Assembly: GCA_036002405.1 (NCBI GenBank)
Contig: DASYTK010000040.1
Coordinates: 1,299-65,298, forward strand
DNA: 64,000 bases
From: Candidatus Limnocylindrales bacterium
GTDB lineage: Bacteria > Chloroflexota > Limnocylindria > Limnocylindrales > CSP1-4
Reading direction: 5' to 3'
Part shown: piece by piece, positions 6,301 to 39,700 of the stretch
Position numbering within the stretch: position 1 is the first letter of the stretch
How the letters are laid out: each line of letters opens with the position of its first letter
Translations under genes and position numbers: made by a program
The notes under the pieces: generated by a model
The model's database searches: none
What the model saw: only the letters and a program-made list of their open reading frames with translations
Told to the model about the DNA's origin: nothing

Positions 6301-8163
6301 CCGACCGGGCTCGCCCGGCGCCGGGTTGACCAGGACGCGATCGTGGCCGATCTCCTCGATCCGCCAGGCACTCGCGCCCAGGAGGATCACCTCGCCCGGG
6401 CGGGCCTCGTAGACCATCTCCTCGTCGAGCTCGCCGACACGTCGCCCACCCCGGTCGCCCGCTCCCCTCGCCCGCGTCCGCGGGCCGTCCCGTCCGCCGG
6501 CCGCGTCGCCGTCGTCGGCGATGAAGACACCGTAGAGGCCGCGGTCCGGGATCGTGCCCCCAGAGACGACCGCGACCGTTCGGGCGTCCCGCCGGCTCTG
6601 GACGGTCCCGGCCACCCTGTCCCAGACGACCCGCGGGCGCAGCTCGGCGAACTCGTCCGCCGGGTACTGCCCGGCGAGCATCCCCAGCACCGCCTCGAAG
6701 CTCTCGCGGCCCAGCTCGGCGAAGTTCTCCGCCCTCTGGACGAGCGCGTAGAGGTCGTCGACCGGCCAGGGTCGCTCGACGCAGGCGGCCACGATCTGCT
6801 GCGCCAGGACGTCGAGCGGATTGCGGGGAAGGGCCGTCGACTCGATCGCCCCCTCGTGCATCCGCCTCGTCACGACGGCGCATTCGAGCAGGTCGCCGCG
6901 GTATTTCGGGAAGATCACGCCGATCGAAGGTTCGTCCACCCGGTGCCCGGCCCGGCCGATCCGCTGGAGTCCCCGTGACACAGACCCCGGCGACTCGACC
7001 TGGACGACGAGGTCCACCGCCCCCATGTCGATGCCGAGCTCGAGCGAGCTGGTGGCCACGATCGCCGGCAGGCGGCCCTGCTTCAGCGCCTCCTCGATCG
7101 CGAGGCGCTGCTCGCGAGCGAGTGAACCGTGGTGGGCGCGGACGAGTTCCTCGCCCGCGAGCTCGTTGAGCTTCTGCGCCAGCCGCTCGGCAAGCCGGCG
7201 GCTGTTGGCGAAGACGATCGTGCTGCGATGGGACCGGATGAGCTCGAGGATCCGGGGATGGATCGCGGGCCAGATGCTCGTCCGCGCCTCGGGCCCGGCC
7301 GCGGAGCCCCCGGGCGCCTCGTCGAGAGGGATCGCCTCACCGAGACGGCTCATGTCCTCGACCGGGACGACGACCTCGAGCTCGAGGGGCTTCCGGATGC
7401 CGACGTCGACGATCGTCACGGGGCGCCGCTCGCCGACCGTGTCCAGGGAGGCTCCCTTGCGAGCTGGGCGCCGGCCGCCGAGGAAGGCCGCTACGACGGG
7501 GAGGGGCCGCTGCGTTGCCGAGAGCCCGATCCGCTGGGGCGGGCGCTCCGTGAGGGCCTCGAGCCGCTCGACGGAGAGGGCGAGATGCGCCCCCCGTTTC
7601 GTGCCGGCGAGAGCGTGGATCTCGTCCACGATGAGCCACTCGACCGAGCGGAGCGCTTCACGCGCCTGCGAGGTCAGGATCAGGTAGAGCGATTCGGGCG
7701 TCGTGACAAGGACGTCGGGGGGGTGCTTGCCGAAGGCACGACGCTCCTCGGCCGGCGTGTCGCCGGTCCGCATCCCGACCCGGATCCGTGGGGGCTCCTG
7801 GCCGCGCGCCCGGGCGGCGAGCGCGATGCCCTGGAGCGGCGCCCGAAGGTTCCGCTCGACGTCATGGACGAGGGCCTTGAGCGGCGAGACGTAGAGCACA
7901 CGCAGCCTGCGGAGCGGATCCTCCGGGGGCGCCGTGGAGAAGAGGCGATCGAGACACCACAGGAACGCGGCGAGGGTCTTGCCCGACCCGGTCGGCGCGC
8001 AGACGAGCGTGTGCTCGCCGCGAGCGATCGCGCGCCATCCCTCGACCTGGGCGGGCGTCGGCTCGGCGAACGACGAGCGGAACCAGTCCTGGGAGGCGGG
8101 CGTGAACGCCGCCAGCGGATCTCCGGCACGGCCGGGGACCGGGCCGGCGCTTGGAGAGGGCAC
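3316..8163 (-). CDS. lhr: Lhr-type large ATP-dependent DEAD/DEAH-box helicase
   Basis: 1615 aa. Walker A CAPTGSGKT, DEIH box, SAT-like LSAT, and HHGSLAREQR...TSSLELGIDMG motifs. The long C-terminal extension is typical of Lhr. GTG start. Confidence 0.9.
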   Translation of the reverse strand: MPSPSAGPVPGRAGDPLAAFTPASQDWFRSSFAEPTPAQVEGWRAIARGEHTLVCAPTGSGKTLAAFLWCLDRLFSTAPPEDPLRRLRVLYVSPLKALVHDVERNLRAPLQGIALAARARGQEPPRIRVGMRTGDTPAEERRAFGKHPPDVLVTTPESLYLILTSQAREALRSVEWLIVDEIHALAGTKRGAHLALSVERLEALTERPPQRIGLSATQRPLPVVAAFLGGRRPARKGASLDTVGERRPVTIVDVGIRKPLELEVVVPVEDMSRLGEAIPLDEAPGGSAAGPEARTSIWPAIHPRILELIRSHRSTIVFANSRRLAERLAQKLNELAGEELVRAHHGSLAREQRLAIEEALKQGRLPAIVATSSLELGIDMGAVDLVVQVESPGSVSRGLQRIGRAGHRVDEPSIGVIFPKYRGDLLECAVVTRRMHEGAIESTALPRNPLDVLAQQIVAACVERPWPVDDLYALVQRAENFAELGRESFEAVLGMLAGQYPADEFAELRPRVVWDRVAGTVQSRRDARTVAVVSGGTIPDRGLYGVFIADDGDAAGGRDGPRTRARGAGDRGGRRVGELDEEMVYEARPGEVILLGASAWRIEEIGHDRVLVNPAPGEPGRIPFWHGDAPGRPIELGRALGELTRELGEALDGTDATRRAAVERLGREHDLDEHAGRNLLDYLEEERQATGALPTDRTIVLQRFRDELGDWRLCLLTPFGARVHAPWALAIETRLRETLGLEVQPIWSDDGIVVRLPATDEGADAWAIEDRVVAGDGEGGPFGAPNGRVDDGNGRRGPADGGGSLGGFGLTGRSGVAAAESAVLIEPEAIEDLVVAALGGSALFASRFRENAARALLLPRQRPGRRTPLWQMRQRSAQLLAVASRYGSFPIVLETYRECLQDVFDLPALREVLAAIRSRSIRVVSVETARASPFASSLLFDYIAAYMYEGDAPLLDRRAQALSLDRELLRELLGAEELRELLDADALAELELELQGLTPERAAGSADSVHDLLRGLGDLSAADVAARVRGTDARARAAAAGEWLEALAADRRAIEVRICGERRWIAAEEAGRFRDAVGIPLPVGVPEAYLGATETPLRSLLARWARRHGPFLAREPAQRWGVPEALIERELDRLLADGAILRGEFRPTGVEREWCDPEVLRLLRRRSLARLRREIEPVEPAALGRFLPAWHGIGSAATGLERLAEVVAQLEGVALPASALERDILPSRVRGYTPRLLDELGAAGEVAWVGQGSLGRDDGRIRLFRPDRLALLRSAPPAATEDDATATASEDWLRDAIRAQLSGRGASFYRDLLAATTAAARTDDRRPPSERQILDALWDLVWAGEVTNDTFAPLRALRWRRPSREARPRRGSIRLGPPEAAGRWSLVRDAVTTAEAIAPAPPSETERRHALTIGLLERHGVLTRPALVAEGIPGGFAALYPVLRELEERGRIRRGYFVEGLGGAQFALPGAVDRLRAERPDPGGGRRDATTVLLAATDPANPYGAALAWPIGSEDRRSLPRVAGAYVVLNDGEPVVYLERGGRSLVTLPAFAASPSAASAALRALTDLVADGRLRALRLERVDGLPVAESPARALLAEAGFRAGYRGWVVARPSG

Positions 8164-8176
8164 GAGCCGAGTATAG
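8164..8176 (-). promoter_or_regulatory. Candidate -10 box (TATACT) placed for a leaderless lhr transcript
   Basis: The minus strand reads GAACC-TATACT-CGGCTC-GTG(start). TATACT ends 6 nt before the GTG start and no Shine-Dalgarno is present. This geometry is typical of leaderless mRNAs in high-GC Gram-positives. Confidence 0.3.
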
Positions 8177-8194
8177 GTTCGAAGGAGCAGATTC

Positions 8195-8590
8195 CTGTCA
8201 TGTACGCAGCTCCTCCTTGCACAACCTGGCTCGCACCTGACCCGCCGGACACACGGCCGGCCCTATCGCGGCGAGGACCTCGGCTTCGATCGCCGGGCTC
8301 ATCGGGTTTCTGCCACTTACGAGCGGGGCTCGTGCAAGTCAACGCGTTGACAGCTGTGGCGGCCCGGCCCAGGTCCATCGGGGCCATGGTCGAGCGTGGC
8401 GGCGCGCGCTTCCGGCCGCGCAATCGGCCGCAAAGTGGCGGCCAGCTCTGACTTACACGAACGTGACTCGTGGGTGACAGCGAATCAGCTCGAATCCGAC
8501 GTCCCTACGAACCTCGCTCGTACATGACAACGAATCTCGCGCGATCCCGCGTTCGCACGATCGCCGCGCGCAGGTGGCAGCACCAGGGCC
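8195..8590. repeat. Cluster of at least 4 dispersed copies (both orientations) of a CTG[CT]CAC-[CT]TACGAG-loop-CTCGT[AG] hairpin repeat
   Basis: Copies read by eye:
- 8310-8338: CTGCCACTTACGAGCGGGGCTCGTGCAAG.
- 8448-8480: palindromic CTGACTTACACGA...TCGTGGGTGACAG.
- 8503-8532: reverse copy, whose complement reads TGTCATGTACGAGCGAGGTTCGTAGGG.
- 8195-8225 and 8571-8590: partial copies.
The same core occurs at 45091-45368. Confidence 0.55.
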
Positions 8591-8627
8591 ACAGACGGGC
8601 CTTCGATGAGCGGCGGACCCGCGATCG

Positions 8628-9833
8628 CTACTCGGCCCTCCTCGACAACCGACGGAAACGTGAGAGTGCCAGCTCGACCGTCCGGCGGTTCTCCGAGACG
8701 ATCTCCTCCGGATCTGGCGTGACGAGATCGGGCGGGTCGAGGAAGTGATCGGGCGGAGGAGCCTGATGGCGGCGGTCCGCCTCCTCAGACCAGCGCTCGC
8801 GCCAGTCGGTGGGGATCGACCGGGGCGGCTCGCGGTGGGCCTGGGCGAGCCAGACGAGGGACCACGCGCGGGGGATCACGCGGTAGACGTCGTAGCCACC
8901 CCCGCCGGTGGCCAGCCAGCGACCCTCGCAATAGTGGTGAGCGAGCTCGTCCATCAACCGATCGGCCCGCCAGTACGCCGCGGTCGTGACGCGCTGGTGC
9001 GCCAGCGGATCGAGGGCGTGGGAATCGCAGCCGTGCTGGGTGACGAGGAAGGTCGGGCGCCAGGCGTCGGCGAGGGCGGGTACGACCGTCTCCACTGCCG
9101 AGCACCAGGAGGCATCACCGCTCCCGGGCAGGAGCGGGACGTTCACCGCCGTGCCCTCGGCATCGGGACCGCCACTCTCCTCGACGAAGCCGGTGCCCGG
9201 GAACAGCGCGAGGCCGGTCTCGTGGATCGAGACGGTCAGGACCTGCGGGTCGTTGTAGAAACAGGCTTCCGTCCCATCTCCGTGGTGGACGTCGAGATCG
9301 ACATAGAGGATGCGATGGCTGGCGTCCCGGGCCCGCGCGACGCCGAGCGCGACGTCGTTGTAGATGCAGAACCCGGAGGCACGCCCGGGCATCGCGTGAT
9401 GGAGTCCGCCTCCCGGGTGGAAGGCGTGCTCCGCGCCACCGTCGAGGATGCTCGCGACAGCGTCGAGCGAACCGCCGGCGACCGCCGCCGAGGCCTCGTG
9501 CATCCCCGGGAAGGCCGGGCAATCGCCCGGTCCGATCCCGGCCCTGGGCGGTCCCGCCGGATCCTCCGAGAAGGACCTCACGATCTCGAGATACGCCGGA
9601 TCGTGGATCCGCTCGAGCTCTGCGTCGCCCGCGACCCGCGGCTCGATGAACTCCTCCGCCCCGATCGCTCGGAGGAGGTCGATCGCGGGGCCGAAGCGCC
9701 GCGGCGTGAGTGGGTGGAGCGGCCCGAAGTCGTACCTCGTCGACCAGGCGCCGAAGACGACGGCCGGCCCGGCCCGTGCCAGGGATCGGGCAGGCGTCGT
9801 CGCGGCGACCGTCTCCCCTTCCGGCCCCTTCAC
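8628..9833 (-). CDS. Histone deacetylase-family (AcuC/AphA-like) deacetylase
   Basis: The segment HPGGGLHHAMPGRASGFCIYNDVAL...DLDVHHGDG carries the class I/II HDAC zinc-site and active-site motifs. The GTG start overlaps the upstream stop (GTGA). Confidence 0.85.
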   Translation of the reverse strand: MKGPEGETVAATTPARSLARAGPAVVFGAWSTRYDFGPLHPLTPRRFGPAIDLLRAIGAEEFIEPRVAGDAELERIHDPAYLEIVRSFSEDPAGPPRAGIGPGDCPAFPGMHEASAAVAGGSLDAVASILDGGAEHAFHPGGGLHHAMPGRASGFCIYNDVALGVARARDASHRILYVDLDVHHGDGTEACFYNDPQVLTVSIHETGLALFPGTGFVEESGGPDAEGTAVNVPLLPGSGDASWCSAVETVVPALADAWRPTFLVTQHGCDSHALDPLAHQRVTTAAYWRADRLMDELAHHYCEGRWLATGGGGYDVYRVIPRAWSLVWLAQAHREPPRSIPTDWRERWSEEADRRHQAPPPDHFLDPPDLVTPDPEEIVSENRRTVELALSRFRRLSRRAE

Positions 9834-27571: not shown

Positions 27572-27863
27572 CGATTCATCGTGGAGGGGGTGGCTCCACC
27601 GGAAGGCCGGTCGGCGCTATGCGGAGGGGCGCGGCTTTCGTCGCGAATATCAGCTCACGCGCTTCCTTCCGCAGGTCTGAGCGATAAGGGCGGCGCTGGT
27701 TGCCACGTCTCCGATGGCTAATCGCGCGCCCTGACGCGCCAGCAACCCTCGGTGCGCTATGCAGCGACTCAAAGCCCAGAGCTCGAGCCGGGCTGCTGTT
27801 TCGGGGCTGGTCACGGACGGTACGCTTGGGCGAGCTGACCTTGCCCCAGAGGAGGATCGTTCG

Positions 27864-28697
27864 ATGACTGCCGACGTGACACGGATCGCCTCGCGCCGCG
27901 CGATGCTCGCCGCGGGTGCGGCTGGATTGCTCGGGGCGATCGCTCACGCCTTCGCCAGCGCCACCCAGGTGCGCGCCGCGAACGGCGACGCCGTCCTCCT
28001 CGGCCAGACGAACACCGCAACCGAGGTGACGACCGTCCAGAACACCGACGCGTCCGAGTGGGCCTTCGCGGGAATGGGCTCGGACACGGGCGTCGGTCTT
28101 CGCGGCGAGGGCGGCGTGGGGGTATCCGGGTTCAGCGATCTCGGGACGGCCGTCGAGGCGCACAGCAATTCGGGTCGGGCAGTGAACGCCGATTCGGGCG
28201 CCGCCACCGAGCCCGCCGTCCGGGCCCGCTCGCTCGGCTTCAGCTCCGGCGTCCTGGGCTACAGCGGCGTCAGTGGAGCGCAGCCCTTCCCGACCGGCAA
28301 GACCGGTGTCGAGGGCGTGTCCGAGATCGACTCCACGGCCCGCGGCGTCTACGGGCGCTCGACCGTCGGTCGGGGGGTGATGGGCTCCGCGACCACGGGT
28401 ACCGCGCTCTACGCGGTCGCTGCCACGAACGGAACGGCCCTCCGGACGACGCGCGGCCACGTCCGCTTCAGCACGGCCGGGCTGGCCACGATCGCGGCCG
28501 GCACGAACAGCGTCACCGTGACCCCGGGCTTCGACATCTCGTCCGGGTCGAAGGTGCTCGCGGTCCTCCAGGGCAACCCGGGTGCCGGGATCCTCTTCCG
28601 CTTCGTGCGCCGGGACTCGGTGAACGACCGCTTCACGATCTACCTGAGCGGTAACGCGACGGCGAATACACCCGTGGCCTGGTTCGTCATTGGCTAG
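27864..28697 (+). CDS. Tat-signal secreted protein with Gly/Ser/Val-rich beta-strand repeats
   Basis: The ATG at 27864 is preceded by GGAGGA. Twin-arginine signal: TRIASRRAMLAAGAAGLLGAIAHAFA-SA. The mature part has iterated G-x-G-V-x-G/S units. No family recognised. Confidence 0.65.
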   Translation: MTADVTRIASRRAMLAAGAAGLLGAIAHAFASATQVRAANGDAVLLGQTNTATEVTTVQNTDASEWAFAGMGSDTGVGLRGEGGVGVSGFSDLGTAVEAHSNSGRAVNADSGAATEPAVRARSLGFSSGVLGYSGVSGAQPFPTGKTGVEGVSEIDSTARGVYGRSTVGRGVMGSATTGTALYAVAATNGTALRTTRGHVRFSTAGLATIAAGTNSVTVTPGFDISSGSKVLAVLQGNPGAGILFRFVRRDSVNDRFTIYLSGNATANTPVAWFVIG

Positions 28698-29789: not shown

Positions 29790-29987
29790 ATGGCGATGCG
29801 TCACGAGTGGCGGGTGTCGGCCACTGTCATCAGCGGCCCTCCGCCAGCGGCCCAGACGACGGTTCCGGTCGCCGTTTGCATCCGCTGCGGGGCAGTACGG
29901 ACGCAGCTGGTGACTCCGGGAGCGCAAGGCCAGATGGATCTCTCCGGCGACTGCGCCGATTCGGGCCCTAGCTCGCGCCCACGCTAG
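29790..29987 (+). CDS. Possible small Cys-containing protein (65 aa)
   Basis: GAAGGAG lies 6 nt upstream of the ATG. The protein contains CIRCG...GDC. Third-position G+C is about 77%. No family recognised. Confidence 0.35.
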   Translation: MAMRHEWRVSATVISGPPPAAQTTVPVAVCIRCGAVRTQLVTPGAQGQMDLSGDCADSGPSSRPR

Positions 29988-30010
29988 ACGCCGGCCCGGC
30001 AACGACGGCC

Positions 30011-30085
30011 TGGTGAGCCCGGCAGGATTCGAACCTGCGACACGCAGATTAAGAGTCTGCTGTTCTACCGCTGAACTACGGGCCC
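30011..30085 (-). tRNA. tRNA-Lys (anticodon CUU), CCA encoded
   Basis: The reverse complement folds as a cloverleaf: GGGCCCG-TA-GTTC-AGCGGTA-GAAC-A-GCAGA-CTCTTAA-TCTGC-GTGTC-GCAGG-TTCGAAT-CCTGC-CGGGCTC-A-CCA. Confidence 0.9.
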
Positions 30086-31627
30086 GCCGTCCGCTCGACC
30101 CGCGGGCTGCGCCGTCGGGGCGCCCGGCATCGGTCGGTGTTCCAGTCTAGCAGAGGCCCCGGCCCGGAGGTCCAGCCTCTCCGAAGCGACGGCGATCAGG
30201 TCTCGATCATGGGTCGCGGCGATGACCGTCGTCGAGGGCGAGGCGAGGCCGGCGAGGAGCCGGGCGATCGCCCGGGCATTGCGCCGGTCGAGAGTCGAGG
30301 TCGGCTCGTCGAGGACGAGAAGCTCGGGCTCGCCGGAGATCGCGCGGGCGATCGCGACCCGCGTCCGCTCACCCGCTGAAAGCACGTCCGGGCGGCGGTC
30401 GCTGAGGGCGAGGACGCCGAGGCGCTCGAGGGCGGCCGAGGCGCGCTCGTCGGCATCCGGCCCGCCGAGTCCTCGGAGGTCGAGGCCGAGGACGACGTTC
30501 TCGATCGCGCTCAGGAAGGAGATCAGCCGGGGTGCCTGGTCGACGATCCCGATCCGGCGGGCGCGGAGGATCGCGAGGGCATCGCGATCGAGCTCGCCCA
30601 GGTCGACGCCCAGCGTGACGACCCGGCCGGCATCGGGGACGTCGAGTCCGGTGACCAGCCGCAGGAGCGTCGACTTGCCGCTCCCCGACGGCCCGGTCAC
30701 GACGTGGAATCCGCCGCTGCCGAAAGCCGCGCTGATCCCGTCGAGCGCGACGGCCGCGATGCCTCCCGTGCCGTAGCTCCGGGAGACGCGCTCCAGCCTG
30801 ACCGCGCTGCCTGCATCGACAGCCGTCGTCGCCGGAGGGCCGACGGCCTGGGCCCGGACAGGCGCCGGAGCGCGCCAGCCGCTCGCGTCCACGGCGGTTC
30901 GGAGGCGTCCTGCGCGCCGTTCGGCGATCGCCCGGCCGTCGCGCAGGTAGACGATCCGGTCGGCGGCCGACTCGAGCTGCTCGTCGTGAGTGACGACGAT
31001 GCCCGTTGCGCCCACCTCGCGCAGGAGCTCGCGCATGAGACGAACGAGGCTCGCGGCGGTGGCGTCGTCGAGCTCGCCGGTCGGCTCGTCCGCGAGGAGG
31101 ATCCGGGGCTCGATGACGAGCGCGGTCGCGACCGCGATCCGCTGCTGCTCCCCGCCCGACAGCTCGGAGGGCAGCGCGTCGGCGCGACCGGCCAGGCCGA
31201 CCCGCTCGAGGATGGCGGCGACGCGCCGCTCCCGCTCGGGGCGGGCAACGCCCCGCAAGCGGAGCGGCAACTCGACCGTGCGGCCGACCGGGAGGTACGG
31301 CGAGAGCGAGCGCCAGTAGTGCTGCTCCACCGTCCCGACGAGCCCCGTCCGGTACTGCCTCAGCTCGGCCTCCGAGGCCCGCTCGAGGGCCACGCCGGCC
31401 GAAAGGATCGAGCCCGCGGTGGGACGCTCGAGACCGGCCAGCAGCCGAAGGAGGGTCGACTTGCCCGACCCGCTCGGCCCGACGACGGTCACGAGCTCTG
31501 CCGGCTCGACGGTCAGATCGAGTCCCCGCAGCGCCGCCACCCCGCCTTCCGCGGCCGGATGGACGTGGATCACCCCCCGCGCCTCGATCGCTCCCGCGGG
31601 TCGCCGGGGCAAGGAGGTCTCAGCCAC
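30065..31627 (-). CDS. ABC transporter ATP-binding protein with two fused ATPase domains
   Basis: 520 aa. It has two Walker A sites (GPSGSGKST twice), two signature motifs (LSGGEQQR, LSAGERTR) and two Walker B sites (LLADEPT, LVLDEPT). The last 21 nt overlap tRNA-Lys. Confidence 0.85.
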   Translation of the reverse strand: MAETSLPRRPAGAIEARGVIHVHPAAEGGVAALRGLDLTVEPAELVTVVGPSGSGKSTLLRLLAGLERPTAGSILSAGVALERASEAELRQYRTGLVGTVEQHYWRSLSPYLPVGRTVELPLRLRGVARPERERRVAAILERVGLAGRADALPSELSGGEQQRIAVATALVIEPRILLADEPTGELDDATAASLVRLMRELLREVGATGIVVTHDEQLESAADRIVYLRDGRAIAERRAGRLRTAVDASGWRAPAPVRAQAVGPPATTAVDAGSAVRLERVSRSYGTGGIAAVALDGISAAFGSGGFHVVTGPSGSGKSTLLRLVTGLDVPDAGRVVTLGVDLGELDRDALAILRARRIGIVDQAPRLISFLSAIENVVLGLDLRGLGGPDADERASAALERLGVLALSDRRPDVLSAGERTRVAIARAISGEPELLVLDEPTSTLDRRNARAIARLLAGLASPSTTVIAATHDRDLIAVASERLDLRAGASARLEHRPMPGAPTAQPAGRADGGPVVQR

Positions 31628-34600
31628 GGATCTCTCGACGGCCCAGTCGCTCCGCGGCGAAGGCTCGCCGCGCCAGGAGCGCCACGAGCCCCCCGACCGT
31701 GACGACGAGCGCGATCACGACCGCGGCCACCGGCAGCCACGGCAGGACCGGCACGAGCGGCGGGATGGGAAGCGCGGCGCCGGCCGACAGGGCAAGGGCG
31801 GAGGTGAGGACGATCGTCAAGGCCACGCCGGCGCCGAGACCGGCAACGATGCCCCCGCCGGTCAGCCAGCCGGTCCGGGCGATCGCCTGGCGGCGCAGCG
31901 CAGCGGGGGCCATGCCCTGTGCCTCGAGATCGGCCAGCTCGCCCCGCTCGTCGCGGACGTCGGCGGCCGCGCCGACGAGGAGCCCGACCACCGCCAGGGC
32001 AATCCCCGTCAGAGCCGCGAGCACGAGAGCCCAGATGACGGCGGCCGCCAGCGGGTCGCTCGCGCGCTGGCTCTCGAGCGCGGCGCGGGAGATGACCTCC
32101 GGGCGCCGGAACGGTCCGCGCTCGATCGCCGAGGCGACCTCGGCCGCGCGACGCTCGTCGGGGGCCCGGATCCAGAGCTCGTCGGGGAAGGCGCTGCCGG
32201 GCTGGTCCGCGTTGATCGCCGTCGCGAGCGGCTCGAGGTCGGCGATCGCGAAGCGGGGCGCCGAGGCCTCGAGGGTGGGGAAGTAGCGAGCGATGCCCGA
32301 GATCCGCAGGTCGAGCGCACCGTCGTCCCCGAGCCGGACCGTCAGCCGGCCGGCGGAGTCGGCGGTCGCAGCCAGGTCGGGGCTGACGATCGCGGGGATC
32401 GTGATCCCGTCGGTGGGCTGCGGGGCCCGGAAGGTGAGCGAGGGCTGGGCATTCGTGAATTCCAGGCGCAGCGGCTCGTCGCCGACAACCTCCGGCAGCC
32501 CGGGCAGGTCGACGACGGCGCGGTTCGTGGACCGCACCGCGCCACCGTGAAAGCCCGTCGACTCGGTGTCCTTGTTCAGGCGGACGGCGATGACCGTCCC
32601 CCCGGCGGCTTCCTCCGGCAGCGGCTGGCGGACGACGCGCCGGCCGGGCGCGACCCGACCGTAGCTCAGCGTCACGAAGTCGCCGCGAGGCGTCGCGACG
32701 ACGGCCGTGAGGAGGATCGGGTCACCCTCGACCGAGATGTCCAGGGCAAGCTGGCCCGCGTTCGCGGGGACGGGCTGACCGCGGAGGGTCCAGTCGCCGG
32801 GGGCGGCGATCCGTCGGCCGAGCTCGTCCACGGATAGCGTCGAGAAGTCCGATCGCCAGCCCCGCAGCCGGGCGACCGACTCGGCCGGCAGCCCGACCAG
32901 CTCGACCGGGGCACCCGTCACGGTGTCGCCGCGGTGGCGGAGCACCGGGGTCCGTTCCACGTCGGCGGGGAGCGCTGCGTACCGGTCGAGCGGCACCACC
33001 GAGGACGAGAAGGTAAGCCCGGTGGGCAGCTCCCGAACACGCAGGTCCATGCCGGCCTGGTAGGCGGCCTGGTCGGCGATGCCCTGCCGGAGGCTCGCCC
33101 CGTACCCGGCCGCGAAGACGATCATGCCAAGACTGAAACAGAGGAGCGTCAGCGTCGCCGCCGGGCGCTCGGGATCGCGAGCCACCGCGAGAATCGAGAA
33201 CCGAAGCGAGAGCGGGGCACGAGCGGTGCGCCTGGCGAGCCAGCGGAAACAGAACGGCAGGAGGGCGAGCAGGCAAAGCGCGACGAGGAAGGCGACGAGC
33301 GGCGGCAGGATGACGACGACAGGGCTGGCGATCGTCCCGGCGAGCCGTGCCGGATCGAGCGCTCCCTCGGCGACGAGCTGCCAGCCGATCAGGCCGAGCG
33401 CGGTCGCCGCCACGACCGGGAGGATGCCGTAGATCCGCCGTCCGGCCAGCGGAAGCGTCGGCAGGAGGATCGCAAAGGCGGCGGCAACGATCACCAGCGC
33501 GAGGCCGGCGATCCCAGTCACGGAAAGGACGGAGTCCATCACCGATGCGACGACGGGCACTCCCTCCACCGCGGCGAGCGCGGCCACCCCGAACGCGGCG
33601 AGGATCACGCCCAGCGCACCGCCACAGATCGCAGGCGCGATCGCCTCGACGGCCAGGAACGAACCGATCTGGCCTCGACGCGCCCCGAATGCGACGAGGC
33701 GCGAGCGCTCGGCGAGGACGTCGGCACGCCCAACGAGCGCGGCGAAGGCGGCGAAGGCGAGGAGGACCGCCGCGGCGAGCGACGAGAGCAGCAGGAGGCG
33801 CGCGGCGGCCGCGCGATCGCGCGCCAGCTCGACCTCGATCGGAGCGAGCGGCGCAGACGACGTCAGCTCGTCTTCCGTCGCGGCCAGCCGCTGATCGACG
33901 AGGCTCACGCGGCGGCGCAGCTCCGTGACGCTCCAGGGGTGGATCACTGCGGGATCCAGGGGAGCGGTCCAGAACTGGGTGCGGCCGATCTCGCCCGCAC
34001 CCTTCCCCGTCGCGGCCGCATCGACGCCCCTGACGAGAAGGATCGCGGCCGCCGGATCCTCGGCGAACCCGAGCGGGCTCGGCGGTCCCTGCTCCGGGCC
34101 GGACTGGTGGAGCGCACCAAGGGGCAGGGCGCTCGTGAGCGTGCCCCGGCCCACGATCCGGAGCTCCAGCTCGCCAAAGCGCACGCCTGCCCGGATCGCG
34201 TCGGGGACAGGGGCCTCGCTCAGGAGGATCGCCTCGCAGCGAGCTCCGTCGCAGGCCTGTGGCTGCCGGCCTTCCGACAGGCGCGTCCAGCGCCCGGGCT
34301 CGTCGAGCGCGACAAGCCGAAGCTCGAAGCGGGCCGCCCTGTCCCGGAGTGGACGCGAGAGGAGGCCCCGAACGGGTGGCTCACCGAACTCGCCGAGCAG
34401 CGCGAGCGCGTCGCGCGCCTCCCGATCGAGCCGCCCGAGATCGCGCCCGCTGGGCACGAACGTCGAGACGCGCACTGCCCGCTCGCCCTCGGGCAGGCCG
34501 GCGAGCGTTCGCGCCAGGGCCAGGTCGCCGCTGACGGACCCGATCCCGAGGATCGTGCCCACGAGCGCCACGGCGGCCGTGACGGCGGCCGTCACGAGGA

Positions 34601-34670
34601 GGGCGTGGCCGCGGCGACGCGCCAGTCGGGCGCGCACGAGATGGAGGATCGCGTTCATCGCAGGCGACAA
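31620..34670 (-). CDS. Large FtsX/MacB-type ABC permease (two FtsX-like TM modules with large extracytoplasmic domains)
   Basis: 1016 aa. Two clusters of TM helices are separated by long soluble regions. It has an 8-nt overlap with the downstream ATPase gene. Confidence 0.75.
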   Translation of the reverse strand: MSPAMNAILHLVRARLARRRGHALLVTAAVTAAVALVGTILGIGSVSGDLALARTLAGLPEGERAVRVSTFVPSGRDLGRLDREARDALALLGEFGEPPVRGLLSRPLRDRAARFELRLVALDEPGRWTRLSEGRQPQACDGARCEAILLSEAPVPDAIRAGVRFGELELRIVGRGTLTSALPLGALHQSGPEQGPPSPLGFAEDPAAAILLVRGVDAAATGKGAGEIGRTQFWTAPLDPAVIHPWSVTELRRRVSLVDQRLAATEDELTSSAPLAPIEVELARDRAAAARLLLLSSLAAAVLLAFAAFAALVGRADVLAERSRLVAFGARRGQIGSFLAVEAIAPAICGGALGVILAAFGVAALAAVEGVPVVASVMDSVLSVTGIAGLALVIVAAAFAILLPTLPLAGRRIYGILPVVAATALGLIGWQLVAEGALDPARLAGTIASPVVVILPPLVAFLVALCLLALLPFCFRWLARRTARAPLSLRFSILAVARDPERPAATLTLLCFSLGMIVFAAGYGASLRQGIADQAAYQAGMDLRVRELPTGLTFSSSVVPLDRYAALPADVERTPVLRHRGDTVTGAPVELVGLPAESVARLRGWRSDFSTLSVDELGRRIAAPGDWTLRGQPVPANAGQLALDISVEGDPILLTAVVATPRGDFVTLSYGRVAPGRRVVRQPLPEEAAGGTVIAVRLNKDTESTGFHGGAVRSTNRAVVDLPGLPEVVGDEPLRLEFTNAQPSLTFRAPQPTDGITIPAIVSPDLAATADSAGRLTVRLGDDGALDLRISGIARYFPTLEASAPRFAIADLEPLATAINADQPGSAFPDELWIRAPDERRAAEVASAIERGPFRRPEVISRAALESQRASDPLAAAVIWALVLAALTGIALAVVGLLVGAAADVRDERGELADLEAQGMAPAALRRQAIARTGWLTGGGIVAGLGAGVALTIVLTSALALSAGAALPIPPLVPVLPWLPVAAVVIALVVTVGGLVALLARRAFAAERLGRREIRG

Positions 34671-34689
34671 CCGTGCGTCGCCGGGTGGA

Positions 34690-36033
34690 TCACTCGGCGG
34701 CGATCCGATCCAGGTAGCTGGCGATGGCCGGCACGCCGAGGAGCCGCCGCTCGAAGTAGTCGTTGACCGCGTCCAGGGCGGCGCTGCGGATGCCTTCGAC
34801 GTCCTCGGCCCTCGCCGTTCGCTCGGCGGCTGCCGAGAGGCTGTCCCGGACGCGCAGGAGATGCTCCACGATCTGCGTCTCGGCGCGGCCCTCGAGCGCC
34901 GAGATCGCCGACATGATCAGCCGATCGGTCTGCGCGACGAGCGTCTCGAGGGCGAAGGCAGAGCCCGGTGCGGCCGCCTCGTCGATCGTCCGGATGAGCG
35001 CCGCGACCTGGTAGAGGACCGTGGCCGGCTCGTCGAACAGCTCGCGGACGTAGGCCGCCTCCTGGTAGCGCCCGGTGAGCCGGAAGACGTTGTACATCCG
35101 CCGCGCGGCCTTGCCGAAGTTGCGCGTCTCGGTGACGTACTTGCGGATCTCGTGCTCGAGCTCGGCGACATACCGGTCGACCGCGTCCCCTTCCAGCTCG
35201 CGCACGATCTTCGTGAAGACCGGGATCGACTCCGCCTCGAGGTAGACCTCCTGGAAGTAGGGATCGATGAAGGTATCGAGCGAGCTGATCGTCCCGTCCG
35301 GCGCCTCCCATGTGACGTCGAGGACGTTCGAGGCATTCGCCAACTGCCCCCGCGCCGGATCGGATACGACCCAGTCCAGCTTGCACCATCCTGGGGTCCG
35401 GGCGGCGTCCTGCCAGGTGATCGACTCGGCCGTCCCGTCCGTACGCTCGACCGCGATCCGGCCCTCGGTCACCTCCTGCGCACTCCAGCTGATCGGTCGG
35501 CCGGCCTTCTGCGGTTCGCCGTTGCGCAGGCAGTCGAAGGGATAGTCGCCGAACTTCACCTCCCAGAGGCGGTAGGTCGGTCCCGACAGCGTGGAGATCG
35601 ACTTCTCCCGAACGACGTCGGCGAGAATCGCGCACGCCTCGTCGCGTGTCGGTGCCCTGACGTTCACCCGCTCGAAGAAATCGCAGTCGCCCGGGAAGGC
35701 CTGGATCCGGCTCTGCGCGGCCGAGCCCGAAAGGGCCAGGGCGGTCTCGACGATCCCGGGCCGGTCGGCCAGCCCGACGATCCGCCCGATCGTCCGGAAA
35801 CGGGCGACGTCGCCGGCCTGGAAGTCGAGCATCGTGACCTTGTGCCCGTAGGTGCCGGACTCGACGTCGAGCACGACCTCGCCCTCGCCTGAGACCTCTG
35901 CCGACATCGCCTCCAGCCAGCGCCGCGCCTCGGCATCGTCGAGCTCGACCCCCATCCGCTCCGCCGATGCCTTGAGAGTGGCGATCGGATCCGGGCCGGA
36001 GGACCCGCCGTCGGCGAGCGGTCGGTCGATCAT
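34690..36033 (-). CDS. Uncharacterised 447-aa protein with pol-beta nucleotidyltransferase-like GS...DxD signature
   Basis: This is the only long ORF that is not a shadow frame here. Residues 100-120 read ALSGSAAQSRIQAFPGDCDFF (nt 35680-35727), with a later acidic strand WCKLDWVVSD. The C-terminal half is helical and A/E/R/L-rich. The start overlaps the upstream stop (ATGA). Confidence 0.7.
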   Translation of the reverse strand: MIDRPLADGGSSGPDPIATLKASAERMGVELDDAEARRWLEAMSAEVSGEGEVVLDVESGTYGHKVTMLDFQAGDVARFRTIGRIVGLADRPGIVETALALSGSAAQSRIQAFPGDCDFFERVNVRAPTRDEACAILADVVREKSISTLSGPTYRLWEVKFGDYPFDCLRNGEPQKAGRPISWSAQEVTEGRIAVERTDGTAESITWQDAARTPGWCKLDWVVSDPARGQLANASNVLDVTWEAPDGTISSLDTFIDPYFQEVYLEAESIPVFTKIVRELEGDAVDRYVAELEHEIRKYVTETRNFGKAARRMYNVFRLTGRYQEAAYVRELFDEPATVLYQVAALIRTIDEAAAPGSAFALETLVAQTDRLIMSAISALEGRAETQIVEHLLRVRDSLSAAAERTARAEDVEGIRSAALDAVNDYFERRLLGVPAIASYLDRIAAE

Positions 36034-36569
36034 CGTCCCGTCAGTCGATCGTGGAGGACCTCCGCGGCGAGGCCCAGCGTCGCCCAGAGCGGCGCGTAGT
36101 CCAGCCGGATCAGACCGGCAACGGCAAGCGGCGACCTGTCGCTGTAATCCCAGGGACAGCGGCCGGTGGAGCGACGAAGGAGCCAGCCACTCGCCGCTTC
36201 GACGGCGAAGATCCCGGTCGCGTACGTCGCGCCCCGGAGGATGGTCGGTCTGTCCCGCAGCCGGTCATGGGCGACCTCGAAGGCCGGCATCGCGAGGCCA
36301 TAGAGGGGCAGCATCCAGGCCGTCGACGGGCCGTGGAGATGGAAACGGCCATCGCGCCGGGCCGTGAGCGCCGTGCTGAAGGCCGACTCGACCGCACAAC
36401 CGACGAGCCCATACGTGAGGAAACGCAGGAGCGGATGCGCGGGCCCTGTCGTTCTTGCGCTGCCAGGCGCGGGCTCTGCCTTTGGTCTCATACGCCCACC
36501 CCTGGAGCGCAAGAGATCGGATGGCGCCGAAATCGACGACGCGGGGGAGCGAGTCGAGGGGCGTTTCAT
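36030..36569 (-). CDS. Small polytopic membrane protein, DUF1113/CmpB-like ('putative ABC-transporter type IV')
   Basis: The hydrophobic core runs LLRFLTYGLVGCAVESAFS...AWMLPLYGLAMPAF...GIFAVEAASGWLL. The C-terminal motif is GRCPWDYSDRSPLAVAGLIRLDYAPLW. The start is uncertain (ATG 36569 or ATG 36491). The track start at 36665 overlaps the aldehyde dehydrogenase gene. Confidence 0.6.
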   Translation of the reverse strand: MKRPSTRSPASSISAPSDLLRSRGGRMRPKAEPAPGSARTTGPAHPLLRFLTYGLVGCAVESAFSTALTARRDGRFHLHGPSTAWMLPLYGLAMPAFEVAHDRLRDRPTILRGATYATGIFAVEAASGWLLRRSTGRCPWDYSDRSPLAVAGLIRLDYAPLWATLGLAAEVLHDRLTGR

Positions 36570-36595
36570 CGCAGGCTGGCCGAGCCGCAGCCGAA

Positions 36596-38134
36596 TCACT
36601 CGGGCTGGTTGTCGATCTGGGCCCGCTGGAGGCGGCCCGAGTAGTCGACGTAGATCGCCTTCCACTCGGTGTACGTGTCGAGTGCGGCATGGCCCGCCTC
36701 GCGATGGCCGTTGCCGGTGCGCTTCATGCCCCCGAACGGAAGGTGCGTCTCGGCTCCGATCGTCCCCGCGTTCACGTAGACGATCCCGGTCTCGAAGTCG
36801 CGCATCGCCCGGAAGGCCGTGTTCGTGTTCGTCGTGTAGATGCTCGACGAGAGGCCGTAGCGAGTCTGGTTCAGCGCCATCGCGGCCTCCTCGTAGCCGG
36901 GCACCCGAATGACCGACAGGACCGGCCCGAAGATCTCTTCCTGGGCCATGCGATCCATCGGCTGGACGTCGTCCACGATCGTCGGCTCGAAGAAGTGGCC
37001 ATGCTCGAGCCCGGCACGATCGGTCGCCCGGCGTCCGCCGCAGGCGATCCGGTTCTCCTCCCCGGCGATCGCGAGATGGCGCTCGACCTTCTCCACTGCC
37101 CCCGCGTTGATCAGGGGCCCGACGTCCGTCGACGGGTCCAGTCCCGCCCCCAGGCGGAGCGCCTGCGCACCCGACTCGAGTCGGCCGACCAGGTCGTCCG
37201 CGATCCGCTCGTGGACGATCAGCCGGCTGCAGGCGGTGCAGCGCTGGCCGGTCGTGCCAAAGGCCGACCAGAGGATGCCCTCGGCGGCCAGGTCGAGGTC
37301 GGCGTCGTCCATGACGACGATCCCGTTCTTCCCGCCCAGCTCGAGTGAGACCCGCTTCAGCCGGCGCGCGGCGAGCTCCGCGATCCGGGTCCCGGTCTCG
37401 GTGTGACCGGTGAAGCTGATGACCGCCACGTCGGGACTGTCGACGAGGGCCATGCCGACCTCATCGCCCGACCCGGTCACGAGGTTGACGACACCGGGCG
37501 GGAACCCGGACTCCGCGAGGAGCTCGACGAGGAGGACCGCGCAGTGCGGCGTGTCGGAAGCGGGCTTGAGGACGACGGTGTTCCCGCTGATGAGCGCCGG
37601 CATAAGCTTCCAGCAGGGGATCGCGACGGGGAAGTTCCAGGGCGTGATCAGCCCGGCCACGCCGATCGGCTCGCGGATGCTCATCGCCCACTTGTTCGGC
37701 AGCTCGGAGGGGACGGTGTCCCCGAAGAGCCGCCTCCCCTCCCCGGCCATGAGGTACGCGATGTCGATCCCCTCCTGGACGTCACCGCGGCCCTCGGGAA
37801 GGATCTTGCCCATCTCGCGGGTCATCTCGCGGGCCACTCGCTCCTTGTGCTCGGCGAGGAGAGCGGCGAAGCGGTACATGATCTCGCCCCGCTTCGGGGC
37901 CGGGGTCGCACGCCAACCCGGGAAGGCCATCCCCGCGGCCCGGATCGCGGCGGCGACGTCGGCCGCGCTCGACAGCGCGAACTGGCCGATCACCTCGCGA
38001 GTGTCGGCCGGGTTGACCGAGGCGAACCGCCGCCCGGTGACCGAGGGCATCCATTCGCCGCCGATGAAGTTGCCGTGGCTGGGCGCGGCGTCTGCGCCCT
38101 GCCGCTCGGGCGCTTCCTCGATCGTCGTCGCCAT
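36596..38134 (-). CDS. NAD(P)-dependent aldehyde dehydrogenase
   Basis: 512 aa. It carries [14 protein letters not shown] and the catalytic Cys context [10 protein letters not shown]. Confidence 0.9.
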
Positions 38135-38259
38135 CGAGCTTCTGCCTCCTGCCCCGTCGGGACGATGTATGTGTACACCATCGCCTCACCTGGGGGGCGG
38201 GTCTCCCCAGCTATCGTCAGGACGTGTGTAAATAGCCGGCTCTGGGCCCGCGAGGGCAA

Positions 38260-39700
38260 AGGAGAACGGCGTACCCTTCCGAGGTCGTTGAAGCCAACAG
38301 AAGGAGCACGCCGCCGATGGAAACCTACCATGCCCTGACCCCGGTCGCCCAGCCCGAGCCGCCTTCCGACGGCACGGCCGATGCGCTGGCCATCGCCTCG
38401 GTTCAGCCGCCTGCCCTGGACACCGACGCCGAGCCCGAACCGAGCGAGCCGCCGGCTGCGATCGTCAACACCACCATCGAGGAGCTGGCCCGCGAGGGCG
38501 CCAGACGCATGCTGGAGCGGGCTCTGGCGGTCGAGGTCGACGAGTTCCTGGGCCGTCCCCGCTACGAGCGTCGCATGCTGGCCGAGCATGGGTACCGCAA
38601 CGGCTACGGCCGCCCGCGACCGGTGGCCATCGGCACCTGGCCGGTCGAGGTCCGCGCGCCGCGCATCCGCGACCTGCCAGACGAGACGCCACCGTTCCAC
38701 AGCGCCATCCTGCCGCGGCGACGGATGCTGTCGGCCGAGACGCAGCGCCTGTTCGCGCGGCTGTACCTGGAGGGTCTGTCGAGCGGAGACTTCGAGCCCG
38801 CTTTCCGCGAGTTGCTGGGCGAGTACGCCACCCTGTCGAGTTCGACCATCCTCAGGCTCAAGGAGGAGTGGTCATCGGAGTACGCCGCCTGGCGGGTGCG
38901 ACCACTGAAGGCCGGGTACGCGTATATCTGGGCGGACGGGATCTACCTCGGCGCCGGGCTCGAGCCCGAGAACTCGTGCCTGCTGGTCGTCGTCGGCGCC
39001 CGCGAGGACGGCCGCAAGGAGCTGCTGGCCATGGAGCTCGGCTACCGCGAGAGCACCCAGTCGTGGGCTGGTGTACTGCGCGGCCTGAAGGCACGCGGCC
39101 TCGAGGCGCCGCTGCTGGCCTGTGGCGACGGCGCGCTCGGGCTGTGGGCCGCGCTCGACGAGGTGTACCCGGGCACCCGTCACCAGCGCTGCTGGAACCA
39201 TCGCGTGCTGAACATCTTGGACAAGGTCCCAAAACGGCTGTGGCCCGACATCCGCCGTCGGCTGCGTGACGTGTGGAGCGCCGAGAGCCGGGCCGAGTGC
39301 GAGCTGCGACGCGACGGGCTGCTGCGCTGGCTGGAGGCCCACGGTCAGCTGGCCGCGGCCGACACGGTGCGCCGCGACTGGGACGACTTTGCCACCTTCT
39401 ACGACTTCCCGGCCGAGCACTGGATCCACCTGCGCACGAGTAACCCCGTTGAGTCGCTGTTTGCCGGCGTGCGGCTGCGCACCGACGTCGCCAAGCGCAT
39501 GCGGCGCCGCGAGAATGCCCTCTACCTCGTATTCAAGATCGCCCAGCGCCTGGAGCACTCCTGGCGCCCACTCAACGGCGGGCTCACGATCATGACCCTG
39601 CTGCTCGGTGGTGCCCGGTTCGTCGATGGGGTCTACGTCCCAGAGGTGAAGGAGACGTCAGCCGCCTGAGCGCGGTCGGAGGCCAGCGGCGGAAGGAGCA
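38260..39700 (+). mobile_element. IS256-family insertion sequence (ends approximate)
   Basis: The transposase fills the space between the aldehyde dehydrogenase promoter region and the RBS of the hydrolase gene. I could not identify convincing terminal inverted repeats or target duplications by eye, so the boundaries are guesses. Confidence 0.35.
38317..39669 (+). CDS. IS256-family (mutator-type) transposase
   Basis: 450 aa. WADGIYL..., CLLVVVGAREDGRKELLA..., QRCWNHRVLNILDKVPK... and ...RTSNPVESLFA are hallmark IS256/Mutator DDE segments. Confidence 0.9.
   Translation: METYHALTPVAQPEPPSDGTADALAIASVQPPALDTDAEPEPSEPPAAIVNTTIEELAREGARRMLERALAVEVDEFLGRPRYERRMLAEHGYRNGYGRPRPVAIGTWPVEVRAPRIRDLPDETPPFHSAILPRRRMLSAETQRLFARLYLEGLSSGDFEPAFRELLGEYATLSSSTILRLKEEWSSEYAAWRVRPLKAGYAYIWADGIYLGAGLEPENSCLLVVVGAREDGRKELLAMELGYRESTQSWAGVLRGLKARGLEAPLLACGDGALGLWAALDEVYPGTRHQRCWNHRVLNILDKVPKRLWPDIRRRLRDVWSAESRAECELRRDGLLRWLEAHGQLAAADTVRRDWDDFATFYDFPAEHWIHLRTSNPVESLFAGVRLRTDVAKRMRRRENALYLVFKIAQRLEHSWRPLNGGLTIMTLLLGGARFVDGVYVPEVKETSAA

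Follow-up and report, generated by a model that had tools for sequence, protein, structure and literature searches.

The locus discussed here lies in a 64,000-nucleotide stretch of DNA from a Candidatus Limnocylindrales genome (contig DASYTK010000040.1; the whole stretch is called the window, and its G+C content is about 70-75%). In it the gene for a 447-amino-acid orphan protein, which we call X447, is packed between the gene for a small membrane protein of the CmpB type and the two genes for an FtsX/ABC transporter, and the question is whether X447 belongs to a system together with these neighbours or works without them, and what it may synthesize. A first-pass annotation of the same sequence had recognized in X447 the signature of a pol-beta nucleotidyltransferase (NTase) and had postulated a membrane-tethered module serving an envelope exporter. 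The explanation which we favour overall is that X447 is a stand-alone cytosolic NTase, independent of the exporter, which would make short oligonucleotides that are trimmed by an exonuclease; we give it a probability of about 0.6. The first-pass annotation was half right: its enzyme call was good, and its "system" is an artefact of the local gene order.

Fold and active site of X447

X447 is identical in sequence to a "hypothetical protein" (P0001) from a Candidatus Limnocylindrales (Chloroflexota) metagenome-assembled genome (MAG). The motif GSAAQSRIQAFPGDCD, which covers residues 103-118 (window 35680-35727) and has the form hG[GS]-x11-DxD, and the strand WCKLDWVV at residues 216-223 were both found where they had been reported. 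A short GS/DxD motif of this kind could on its own be due to chance, and its reality rests on conservation together with a match of the fold. Conservation was followed in two sets of sequences: an alignment (A2) of 35 family sequences reaching down to 31% identity to X447, and a divergent set composed of X447 and 30 representatives of 50%-identity clusters (30-53% identity, n = 31). S104, D116 and D118 are present in all 35 sequences of A2 and G103 in 34 of them, and each of these four residues is kept in 30/31 of the divergent representatives. It had been suggested that D220 in the WCKLDWVV strand would be invariant together with these four; the four stood up, but D220 is found in only 27/35 and 20/31 of the sequences in the two sets and was rejected as the third catalytic acid. 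In the superfamily this role belongs to a conserved carboxylate (h[DE]h) on a neighbouring strand. Judged from the alignments, better candidates for it are D253 (30/31), D239 (29/31 plus one E) and E158 (E or D in 27/31); D257 is also well kept (29/31 plus one E). The C-terminal helical domain carries R318 in 31/31 and R312, Y314 and N315 in 30/31 of the divergent representatives.

An AlphaFold2 model built with the 35-sequence alignment as input has a predicted local distance difference test score (pLDDT) of 88.9 and a predicted template modelling score (pTM) of 0.86. In the model G103-S104 closes the strand 95-102, and D116-C-D118-F opens the strand 117-126, 11 residues after S104. The superfamily is recognized by a [DE]h[DE]h pair located 9-13 residues past the GS and on the next strand, and this is the position which the pair occupies in X447. 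No transmembrane segment was found in X447, which from its sequence is predicted to be a soluble, cytosolic protein.

When the model was compared with the Protein Data Bank (PDB) by Foldseek, the best matches were three structures of the Mg662 protein of Megavirus chilensis (4ams, 4xul and 4amq; E 3e-6 to 1e-5, probability 1.00, target-normalised template modelling score (TM-score) 0.51-0.56), which are titled "a new nucleotidyl transferase" and one of which contains GTP. Below these came weak matches, among them several further NTase-fold proteins (FAM46/TENT5, NF90-NF45, AadA/ANT(3'')(9) and MiD51), with unrelated proteins, e.g. CorA and kinesins, in between. A comparison with the predicted viral structures in BFVD gave 15 proteins from giant viruses and virophages (E 8.5e-13 to 7e-5, TM-score up to 0.64), among them proteins of mavirus and of the Zamilon, Yellowstone Lake and Qinghai Lake virophages, a "V21 virophage-like protein" from Fadolivirus, an "L544-like helical domain" protein from Faunusvirus and a "nucleotidyl transferase" from Pithovirus. 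In the comparisons with the model, Mg662 and the virophage and giant-virus NTases are thus the nearest structural relatives of X447. At the level of sequence, the A2 profile found no NTase among the PDB sequences at E<=10, only spurious helical designer proteins. A literature search found no description of a function for Mg662 (4AMS, 4XUL), virophage V21 or L544, and the match with Mg662 therefore names the fold and not the activity.

Because the fold match and the conservation of the active site agree, the model makes it highly probable that X447 has the pol-beta NTase fold and is an active enzyme, as the first-pass annotation had proposed from the motif. The opposite view would be that X447 has lost catalysis and serves as an NTase-fold scaffold or as a nucleotide sensor, in the manner of MiD51 or NF45, and MiD51 and NF90/NF45 do occur among the structural matches; pseudo-enzymes, however, typically lose the G-S and DxD residues which are nearly invariant in this family, and we consider a dead enzyme extremely improbable.

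The family is large. Of 8,000 candidates scored, 5,900 (clusters at 90% identity) reached E<=1e-3, so that the family counts at least 5,900 such clusters; those which carry a name are all called "hypothetical" and almost all belong to Chloroflexota. An exhaustive phmmer search gave 529 clusters at 50% identity. Members were found in the genomes of at least 574 GTDB species, including Limnocylindrales, Anaerolineales, Thermoflexales and Ardenticatenales. Across the classes of Chloroflexota the identity to the X447 of the window is 54-66%, and one branch, at 38% identity, carries the label Cyanobacteriota. None of the libraries searched covers the family, and it shares its architecture only with the giant-virus and virophage proteins.

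Some members deserve separate mention. Two contigs of a single Limnocylindrales MAG (L077 and L081 in JBBSMF01) each carry a pair of an aldehyde dehydrogenase (Aldh) gene and an NTase gene, the NTases being 61% and 60% identical to X447; these could be paralogous copies or come from a mixed bin. In a distant homologue of 1067 amino acids (P0179, L091:6763-9966(+)) the NTase domain is fused to a PQQ_2 beta-propeller region. In another of 1291 amino acids (P0243, L092:693-4568(+)) the NTase domain is C-terminal and preceded by AbfB, F-box-associated (FBA), C-type lectin-like and PLAT-like regions; a gene for a TonB-dependent receptor is located nearby.

Gene order around X447 homologues

The four co-directional open reading frames (ORFs) on the minus strand are as tightly packed as had been described. 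The ATGA at 36030-36033, in which the start of X447 overlaps the stop of the CmpB-like gene, and the 8-nt overlap of the permease and ATPase genes at 31620-31627 were read directly from the DNA. The gap between X447 and the permease gene is 19 nt if the permease starts at the TTG, and 31 nt with the start annotated by NCBI (ATG 34658, 1012 amino acids, P0285). From the ATGA overlap the CmpB-like gene and X447 would appear to be translationally coupled. A scan for promoters and terminators in 29800-38400 gave no signal above the shuffled expectation and none that separates the genes.

The identities of the neighbours, too, are largely those proposed earlier. The upstream protein does belong to the CmpB family (PF06541, ABC_trans_CmpB; a score of 39.1 bits where the gathering cut-off is 25.9, over residues 82-201 of the longest ORF, which begins at GTG 36665), but its four supposed transmembrane segments are only moderately hydrophobic, none of them passing a Kyte-Doolittle value of 1.4 over 19 residues, and 17 residues follow the "...DYAPLW" which had been taken as its end. 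For the downstream genes Pfam and NCBIfam confirm a permease with two FtsX stretches and an ATPase in which two ABC units are fused. MacB_PCD was not detected by Pfam in the permease, which has two large extracytoplasmic regions. The coordinates are collected in Table 1.

Table 1. Features of the X447 locus (window coordinates) and examples of the exonuclease gene found beside X447 homologues in other genomes (coordinates of the respective loci).
Feature	Position	Strand	Basis
Fused double ABC ATPase, 520 aa, FtsE/LolD/MacB type	30065..31627	-	ABC_tran in two stretches, 201.9 bits; NCBIfam FtsE and LolD
Double-FtsX permease, 1016 aa	31620..34670	-	Pfam FtsX PF02687 in two stretches; transmembrane clusters
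X447, 447-aa orphan with predicted pol-beta NTase fold	34690..36033	-	ORF, homologues, AlphaFold2 model, Foldseek
C-terminal all-helical domain, residues ~267-446	34696..35235	-	Model helices; conserved basic motif K308, R312, Y314, N315, R318, R330
NTase catalytic core and large beta-sheet elaboration, residues ~95-265	35239..35751	-	Model strands 95-102, 117-126, 154-163, 217-264; Foldseek
WCKLDWVV strand, including D220	35365..35388	-	D220 poorly conserved
D116-C-D118, predicted metal-binding DxD; strand which follows the GS helix	35680..35688	-	35/35 and 30/31
G103-S104, hG[GS] motif	35722..35727	-	30/31 each in divergent representatives
N-terminal small alpha/beta domain, residues ~16-90	35764..35988	-	Model secondary structure; conserved W39, G63, D70, R80
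CmpB-like small membrane protein gene (PF06541)	36030..36569	-	ATG start; Pfam
Aldehyde dehydrogenase (Aldh)	36596..38134	-	Pfam Aldedh, E 1e-166; upstream neighbour kept within the sublineage, context only
Cap18-type exonuclease, examples	L084:9383-9955, L001:9355-9900, L089:5447-6004, and 30 further loci	-, -, +	~40% of family loci

The proposal that X447 is tethered through the CmpB-like protein, and that it modifies or signals to a substrate of the FtsX/ABC exporter in envelope modification, signalling or defence, draws on the ATGA coupling and the short gap to the permease gene. It was examined in 87 loci with X447 homologues, 55 of which have at least 3 kb on both sides. Directed tblastn and hidden Markov model (HMM) searches replaced a de novo clustering of the neighbouring ORFs, in which long spurious ORFs of the high-GC DNA chained the clusters together. 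With the CmpB, FtsX and ABC proteins of the window as tblastn queries, neither CmpB nor FtsX was found beside the first 82 loci, and the ABC matches in these were distant, generic and several kb away. With HMMs of the CmpB and the permease families on all 87 loci, CmpB was found at one locus only (L083) and the permease at none.

The locus with CmpB carries the closest relative of X447 (80% identity). CmpB precedes X447 also there, so that this adjacency does recur, but downstream is an FAD oxidase gene on the other strand and no FtsX/ABC pair. The neighbours are in turn found without X447. In two genomes (L087 and L088) the permease gene is followed by the double ATPase gene with neither CmpB nor X447. 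In another (L086) the order is Aldh-CmpB-FtsX-ABC, with 10 nt between CmpB and FtsX and no X447. CmpB genes at 58-64% identity occur at three more loci (L093, L094 and L095) which lack Aldh, X447, FtsX and ABC. The Aldh gene is upstream of CmpB in L083 and L086 and directly upstream of X447, without CmpB, in L013, L072, L077 and L081. A protein search for the permease gave about 48 clusters from Limnocylindrales and Actinobacteriota (Solirubrobacter, Gaiellaceae); a metagenome scan with the FtsX permease gave no confirmed relative.

The FtsX permease and the double ATPase are thus an autonomous two-gene module, and because it is found elsewhere without X447 and CmpB, X447 is not an accessory of the exporter. 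The CmpB-like gene is a lineage-specific neighbour of X447 and not a conserved partner. The order Aldh-CmpB-X447-FtsX-ABC in the window is one of several rearranged gene orders that are seen downstream of the conserved Aldh gene, and the tight packing of X447 with CmpB and FtsX/ABC is a recent juxtaposition in this lineage and not a conserved system. Tight spacing is usual in this region, even between the unrelated Aldh and CmpB genes, and it should be noted that in compact high-GC genomes overlaps of stop and start codons do not alone define a functional system.

We consider it very likely that X447 is not functionally tied to CmpB or to the ABC exporter. The first-pass annotation had itself stated that its proposal would fall if homologues elsewhere were not linked to the membrane protein or the ABC genes, and this lack of linkage is what the survey found (CmpB at 1/87, the FtsX/ABC pair at 0/87 loci); the tethered module has thereby largely been refuted. 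That a CBASS (cyclic oligonucleotide-based antiphage signalling system) can use small effectors with several transmembrane segments, e.g. Cap19 (10.1101/2022.01.04.474952), speaks somewhat for a role of the CmpB-like protein, but with X447 lacking a transmembrane segment and its neighbours standing without it in other genomes we find the exporter model very unlikely.

Two other features of the region were seen. A transposase gene of the Mutator/IS256 family (PF00872, E 1.6e-56) at 38317-39669 (+) stands divergently upstream of the Aldh gene, which fits the shuffling of the gene order in this region among relatives. At 27759-28697 (+) a 312-amino-acid ORF without a Pfam family has an N-terminus (…TRIASRRAMLAAGAAGLLGAIAHAFA) which resembles a twin-arginine signal peptide.

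The recurrent exonuclease gene and the function of X447

The only recurrent neighbour across the X447 family is a gene for an exonuclease of about 185 amino acids. Among the 77 loci with at least 1 kb of upstream DNA it is located immediately upstream of the X447 homologue in 32, divergently in 20 of these (with a gap of ~20-390 nt) and co-directionally in the other 12. At the locus of the 38%-identity homologue labelled Cyanobacteriota (L089) the exonuclease gene overlaps the NTase gene by 4 nt, and its product is 44% identical to a copy from Chloroflexota. In Pfam the exonuclease matches Rv2179c-like (33 bits) and RNase_T (29 bits). Its best PDB match is Cap18 of E. coli upec-117 (7T2S; E 3.9e-30, 108 bits, full length), the next match having E 0.12, and it matches the full length of PADLOC model PDLC00753, labelled "Effector / Exonuclease", with 165-209 bits; we read PDLC00753 as the model for exonuclease effectors in the CBASS set. 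From these matches the neighbour is assigned to the Cap18 family of DEDDh exonucleases. The adjacency is preserved through three gene arrangements and down to 38% identity and therefore argues for a functional link between the two families, which we regard as probably real.

Cap18 was first named as an uncharacterised 3'-5' exonuclease in a type III CBASS operon, in which mutation of its catalytic site left the protection against lambda unchanged (10.1101/2022.01.04.474952). According to a later preprint, the linear 2'-5' dinucleotides which cGAS-like cyclases form as intermediates are hydrolysed by the CBASS exonucleases ("Exo"), including E. coli Cap18, and in V. cholerae 3'-5' dinucleotides are hydrolysed as well; the Exo activity is reported to set a threshold for signal synthesis (10.1101/2025.03.04.641389). 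The reading of X447 as an oligonucleotide synthase is ranked first because its partner is of the type of exonuclease which accompanies the pol-beta-fold cyclases of CBASS and acts on their dinucleotide intermediates. The earlier idea of a nucleotide-signal producer is thus supported indirectly, by a Cap18-type exonuclease partner which is seen in other genomes and which the window lacks.

The mechanism could be as follows. X447 would bind a nucleoside triphosphate and two Mg2+ ions, with D116, D118 and one of E158, D239 and D253 as the three acids, and would join nucleotides in the absence of a template to give short oligonucleotides, either linear or cyclic. The exonuclease, where present, would trim these products or set a threshold for them. 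The exonuclease gene is not adjacent in the lineage of the window, and X447 would therefore work there alone or with a partner encoded elsewhere. An activity as oligonucleotide or cyclic-nucleotide synthase is a tentative assignment, with the odds somewhat against it.

The same exonuclease would suit the processing of nucleic acid ends equally well, which is one of several points that weigh against an oligonucleotide synthase. In E. coli the turnover of tRNA ends sets RNase T against tRNA nucleotidyltransferase, and by analogy X447 could be a template-independent enzyme for tailing or repair of 3'-ends (of the TENT, poly(A) polymerase or CCA-adding type) opposed by the 3'-5' exonuclease. The Pfam matches of the partner to Rv2179c-like exoribonuclease and RNase_T point this way, as do the FAM46/TENT5 poly(A) polymerases among the non-viral Foldseek matches, the housekeeping-like conservation and the strongly basic, conserved helical domain. 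However, the TENT5 matches are weak (E 0.02-0.03, TM-score <0.25), X447 has no PAP/CCA domain in Pfam and no RNA-binding domain, the exonuclease is specifically of the Cap18 type and not RNase T or Orn, and one Cap18 homologue was inactive on long RNA or DNA (10.1101/2025.03.04.641389). We regard a tailing enzyme as unlikely.

A further alternative is that X447 transfers nucleotides to small molecules or proteins, as do ANT, Lnu, GlnE and other AMPylases, in which case its adjacency to the exonuclease would be coincidental. AadA/ANT(3'')(9) is among the Foldseek matches and Mg662 was crystallised with GTP only. The fused homologue P0179 stands in a co-directional, biosynthetic-looking cluster with AMP-binding/PP-binding, PLD, carbamoyltransferase, glycosyltransferase (GT25) and P450 genes, an arrangement which also counts against an oligonucleotide synthase; in another distant homologue the fusion is with carbohydrate-binding modules. 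Yet the ANT matches are weak (E 0.1-0.5), an adjacency which persists over three arrangements and down to 38% identity is hardly chance, and NTases of the resistance type are not usually so conserved or so widely inherited vertically. This alternative seems to us quite improbable.

The remaining evidence against X447 as an oligonucleotide synthase concerns both the partner and the enzyme. The exonuclease gene is absent from the window and not adjacent in more than half of the family loci, and its family, with 759 matches, is much smaller than the X447 family. No conserved effector was found beside the NTase-exonuclease pair, the other neighbour clusters reaching at most 13/82 loci. Scans of X447 against Pfam, NCBIfam and PADLOC (the last at E<=1) gave no family, which agrees with the first-pass judgement that the protein lies outside the families that can be named; none of the 35 members of A2 matches a Pfam family at E<=5. 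A CD-NTase/SMODS or any other NTase model was not matched at the sequence level in Pfam, NCBIfam, PADLOC or the PDB sequences, and the 50 best Foldseek matches in the PDB include neither cGAS nor DncV nor OAS. No homologue was found in the viral contigs of IMG/VR or in collections of plasmids and phages. With its high conservation and its absence from mobile and viral collections the family looks like a vertically inherited, housekeeping-like one and not like a defence gene. A reading of the loci as defence islands was rejected as well, the neighbours in L001, L002 and L084 being ordinary metabolic genes.

In the loci inspected no CD-NTase or effector-type gene is annotated around the exonuclease, and in the window CmpB is the only gene which might take an effector role, its link to X447 not being conserved. 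A literature search on CBASS, Chloroflexota, exonuclease and NTase found no report of a pairing of X447 with Cap18.

Three observations concern other genes near the NTase. In eight loci, mostly labelled Anaerolineales, a DUF3786 protein (PF12654, E 1.8e-38) without a PDB relative is encoded immediately downstream of the NTase; at L002:11332-12027(+) its gene overlaps the NTase stop by 4 nt, and other examples are L029, L033, L035, L040 and L048. In 11 loci without the exonuclease (L026:2074-2841(+) and 10 others) a ComEA-like protein with SLBB and helix-hairpin-helix domains (TIGR01259 comEA, E 1.9e-17) is encoded downstream of the NTase, adjacent in 10 and more than 1 kb away in one. The exonuclease-NTase pair of L089 is flanked by a HepT-like/MNT (NTP_transf_2) toxin-antitoxin pair (8011-8662(-)), an integrase fragment and two genes for Uma2 endonucleases.

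Neither the pol-beta NTase superfamily nor Cap18 is new, and it is the X447 family itself that is undescribed. A family with thousands of members, conserved across the classes of Chloroflexota, has so far been nameless, and now that a fold and a defined active site can be predicted for it, it is open to direct tests. Its structural kinship ties a bacterial family to Megavirus and virophage proteins for which we found no function described, and its recurrence beside a Cap18-type exonuclease suggests that oligonucleotides serve as signals outside classical CBASS, too. It is possible, though doubtful, that the X447 family and the exonuclease form an unrecognised, vertically inherited nucleotide-second-messenger module in Chloroflexota, with a synthase which is not a CD-NTase and belongs to the structural family of Mg662 and V21. 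If so, viral ORFans like Mg662 and the V21-like proteins would gain a biochemical function, and the logic of a cyclase checked by an exonuclease which degrades its intermediates would reach beyond CBASS. The locus in the window is one more member of the family and adds nothing further to this.

Comparison with known systems

The exporter half of the locus resembles MacB/FtsX-type ABC exporters in having genes for a double-FtsX permease and a fused double ATPase, here downstream of X447; the difference is that in other genomes this FtsX-ABC module stands without X447 and CmpB.

Among the NTases, Mg662 and the giant-virus and virophage proteins correspond to X447 over their full length (410-432 aligned columns, TM-score 0.43-0.64, probability 1.00) and share with it an NTase core followed by a helical C-terminal domain, but the identity in the structural alignments is only 8-16%, and the hosts are viral in one case and bacterial in the other. 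A pol-beta NTase core followed by a helical domain is also found in TENT5/FAM46, the DZF proteins NF90-NF45, MiD51 and AadA/ANT(3'')(9); these, however, match weakly (E 0.02-0.5, TM-score <0.3), have no sequence similarity to X447 and differ from it in their insertions and in the N-terminal domain.

CBASS operons and the X447 loci with an exonuclease have in common a pol-beta-fold NTase with GS...DxD beside a DEDDh exonuclease of the Cap18 family. They differ in that the CBASS cyclase matches the CD-NTase/SMODS models, of which X447 matches none, and in that the X447 loci have no conserved effector and no genes for Cap2/Cap3 or HORMA/TRIP13. Unlike CBASS the X447 family looks vertically inherited and housekeeping-like, and the pairing of NTase and exonuclease which resembles CBASS is seen in its relatives and not in the window.

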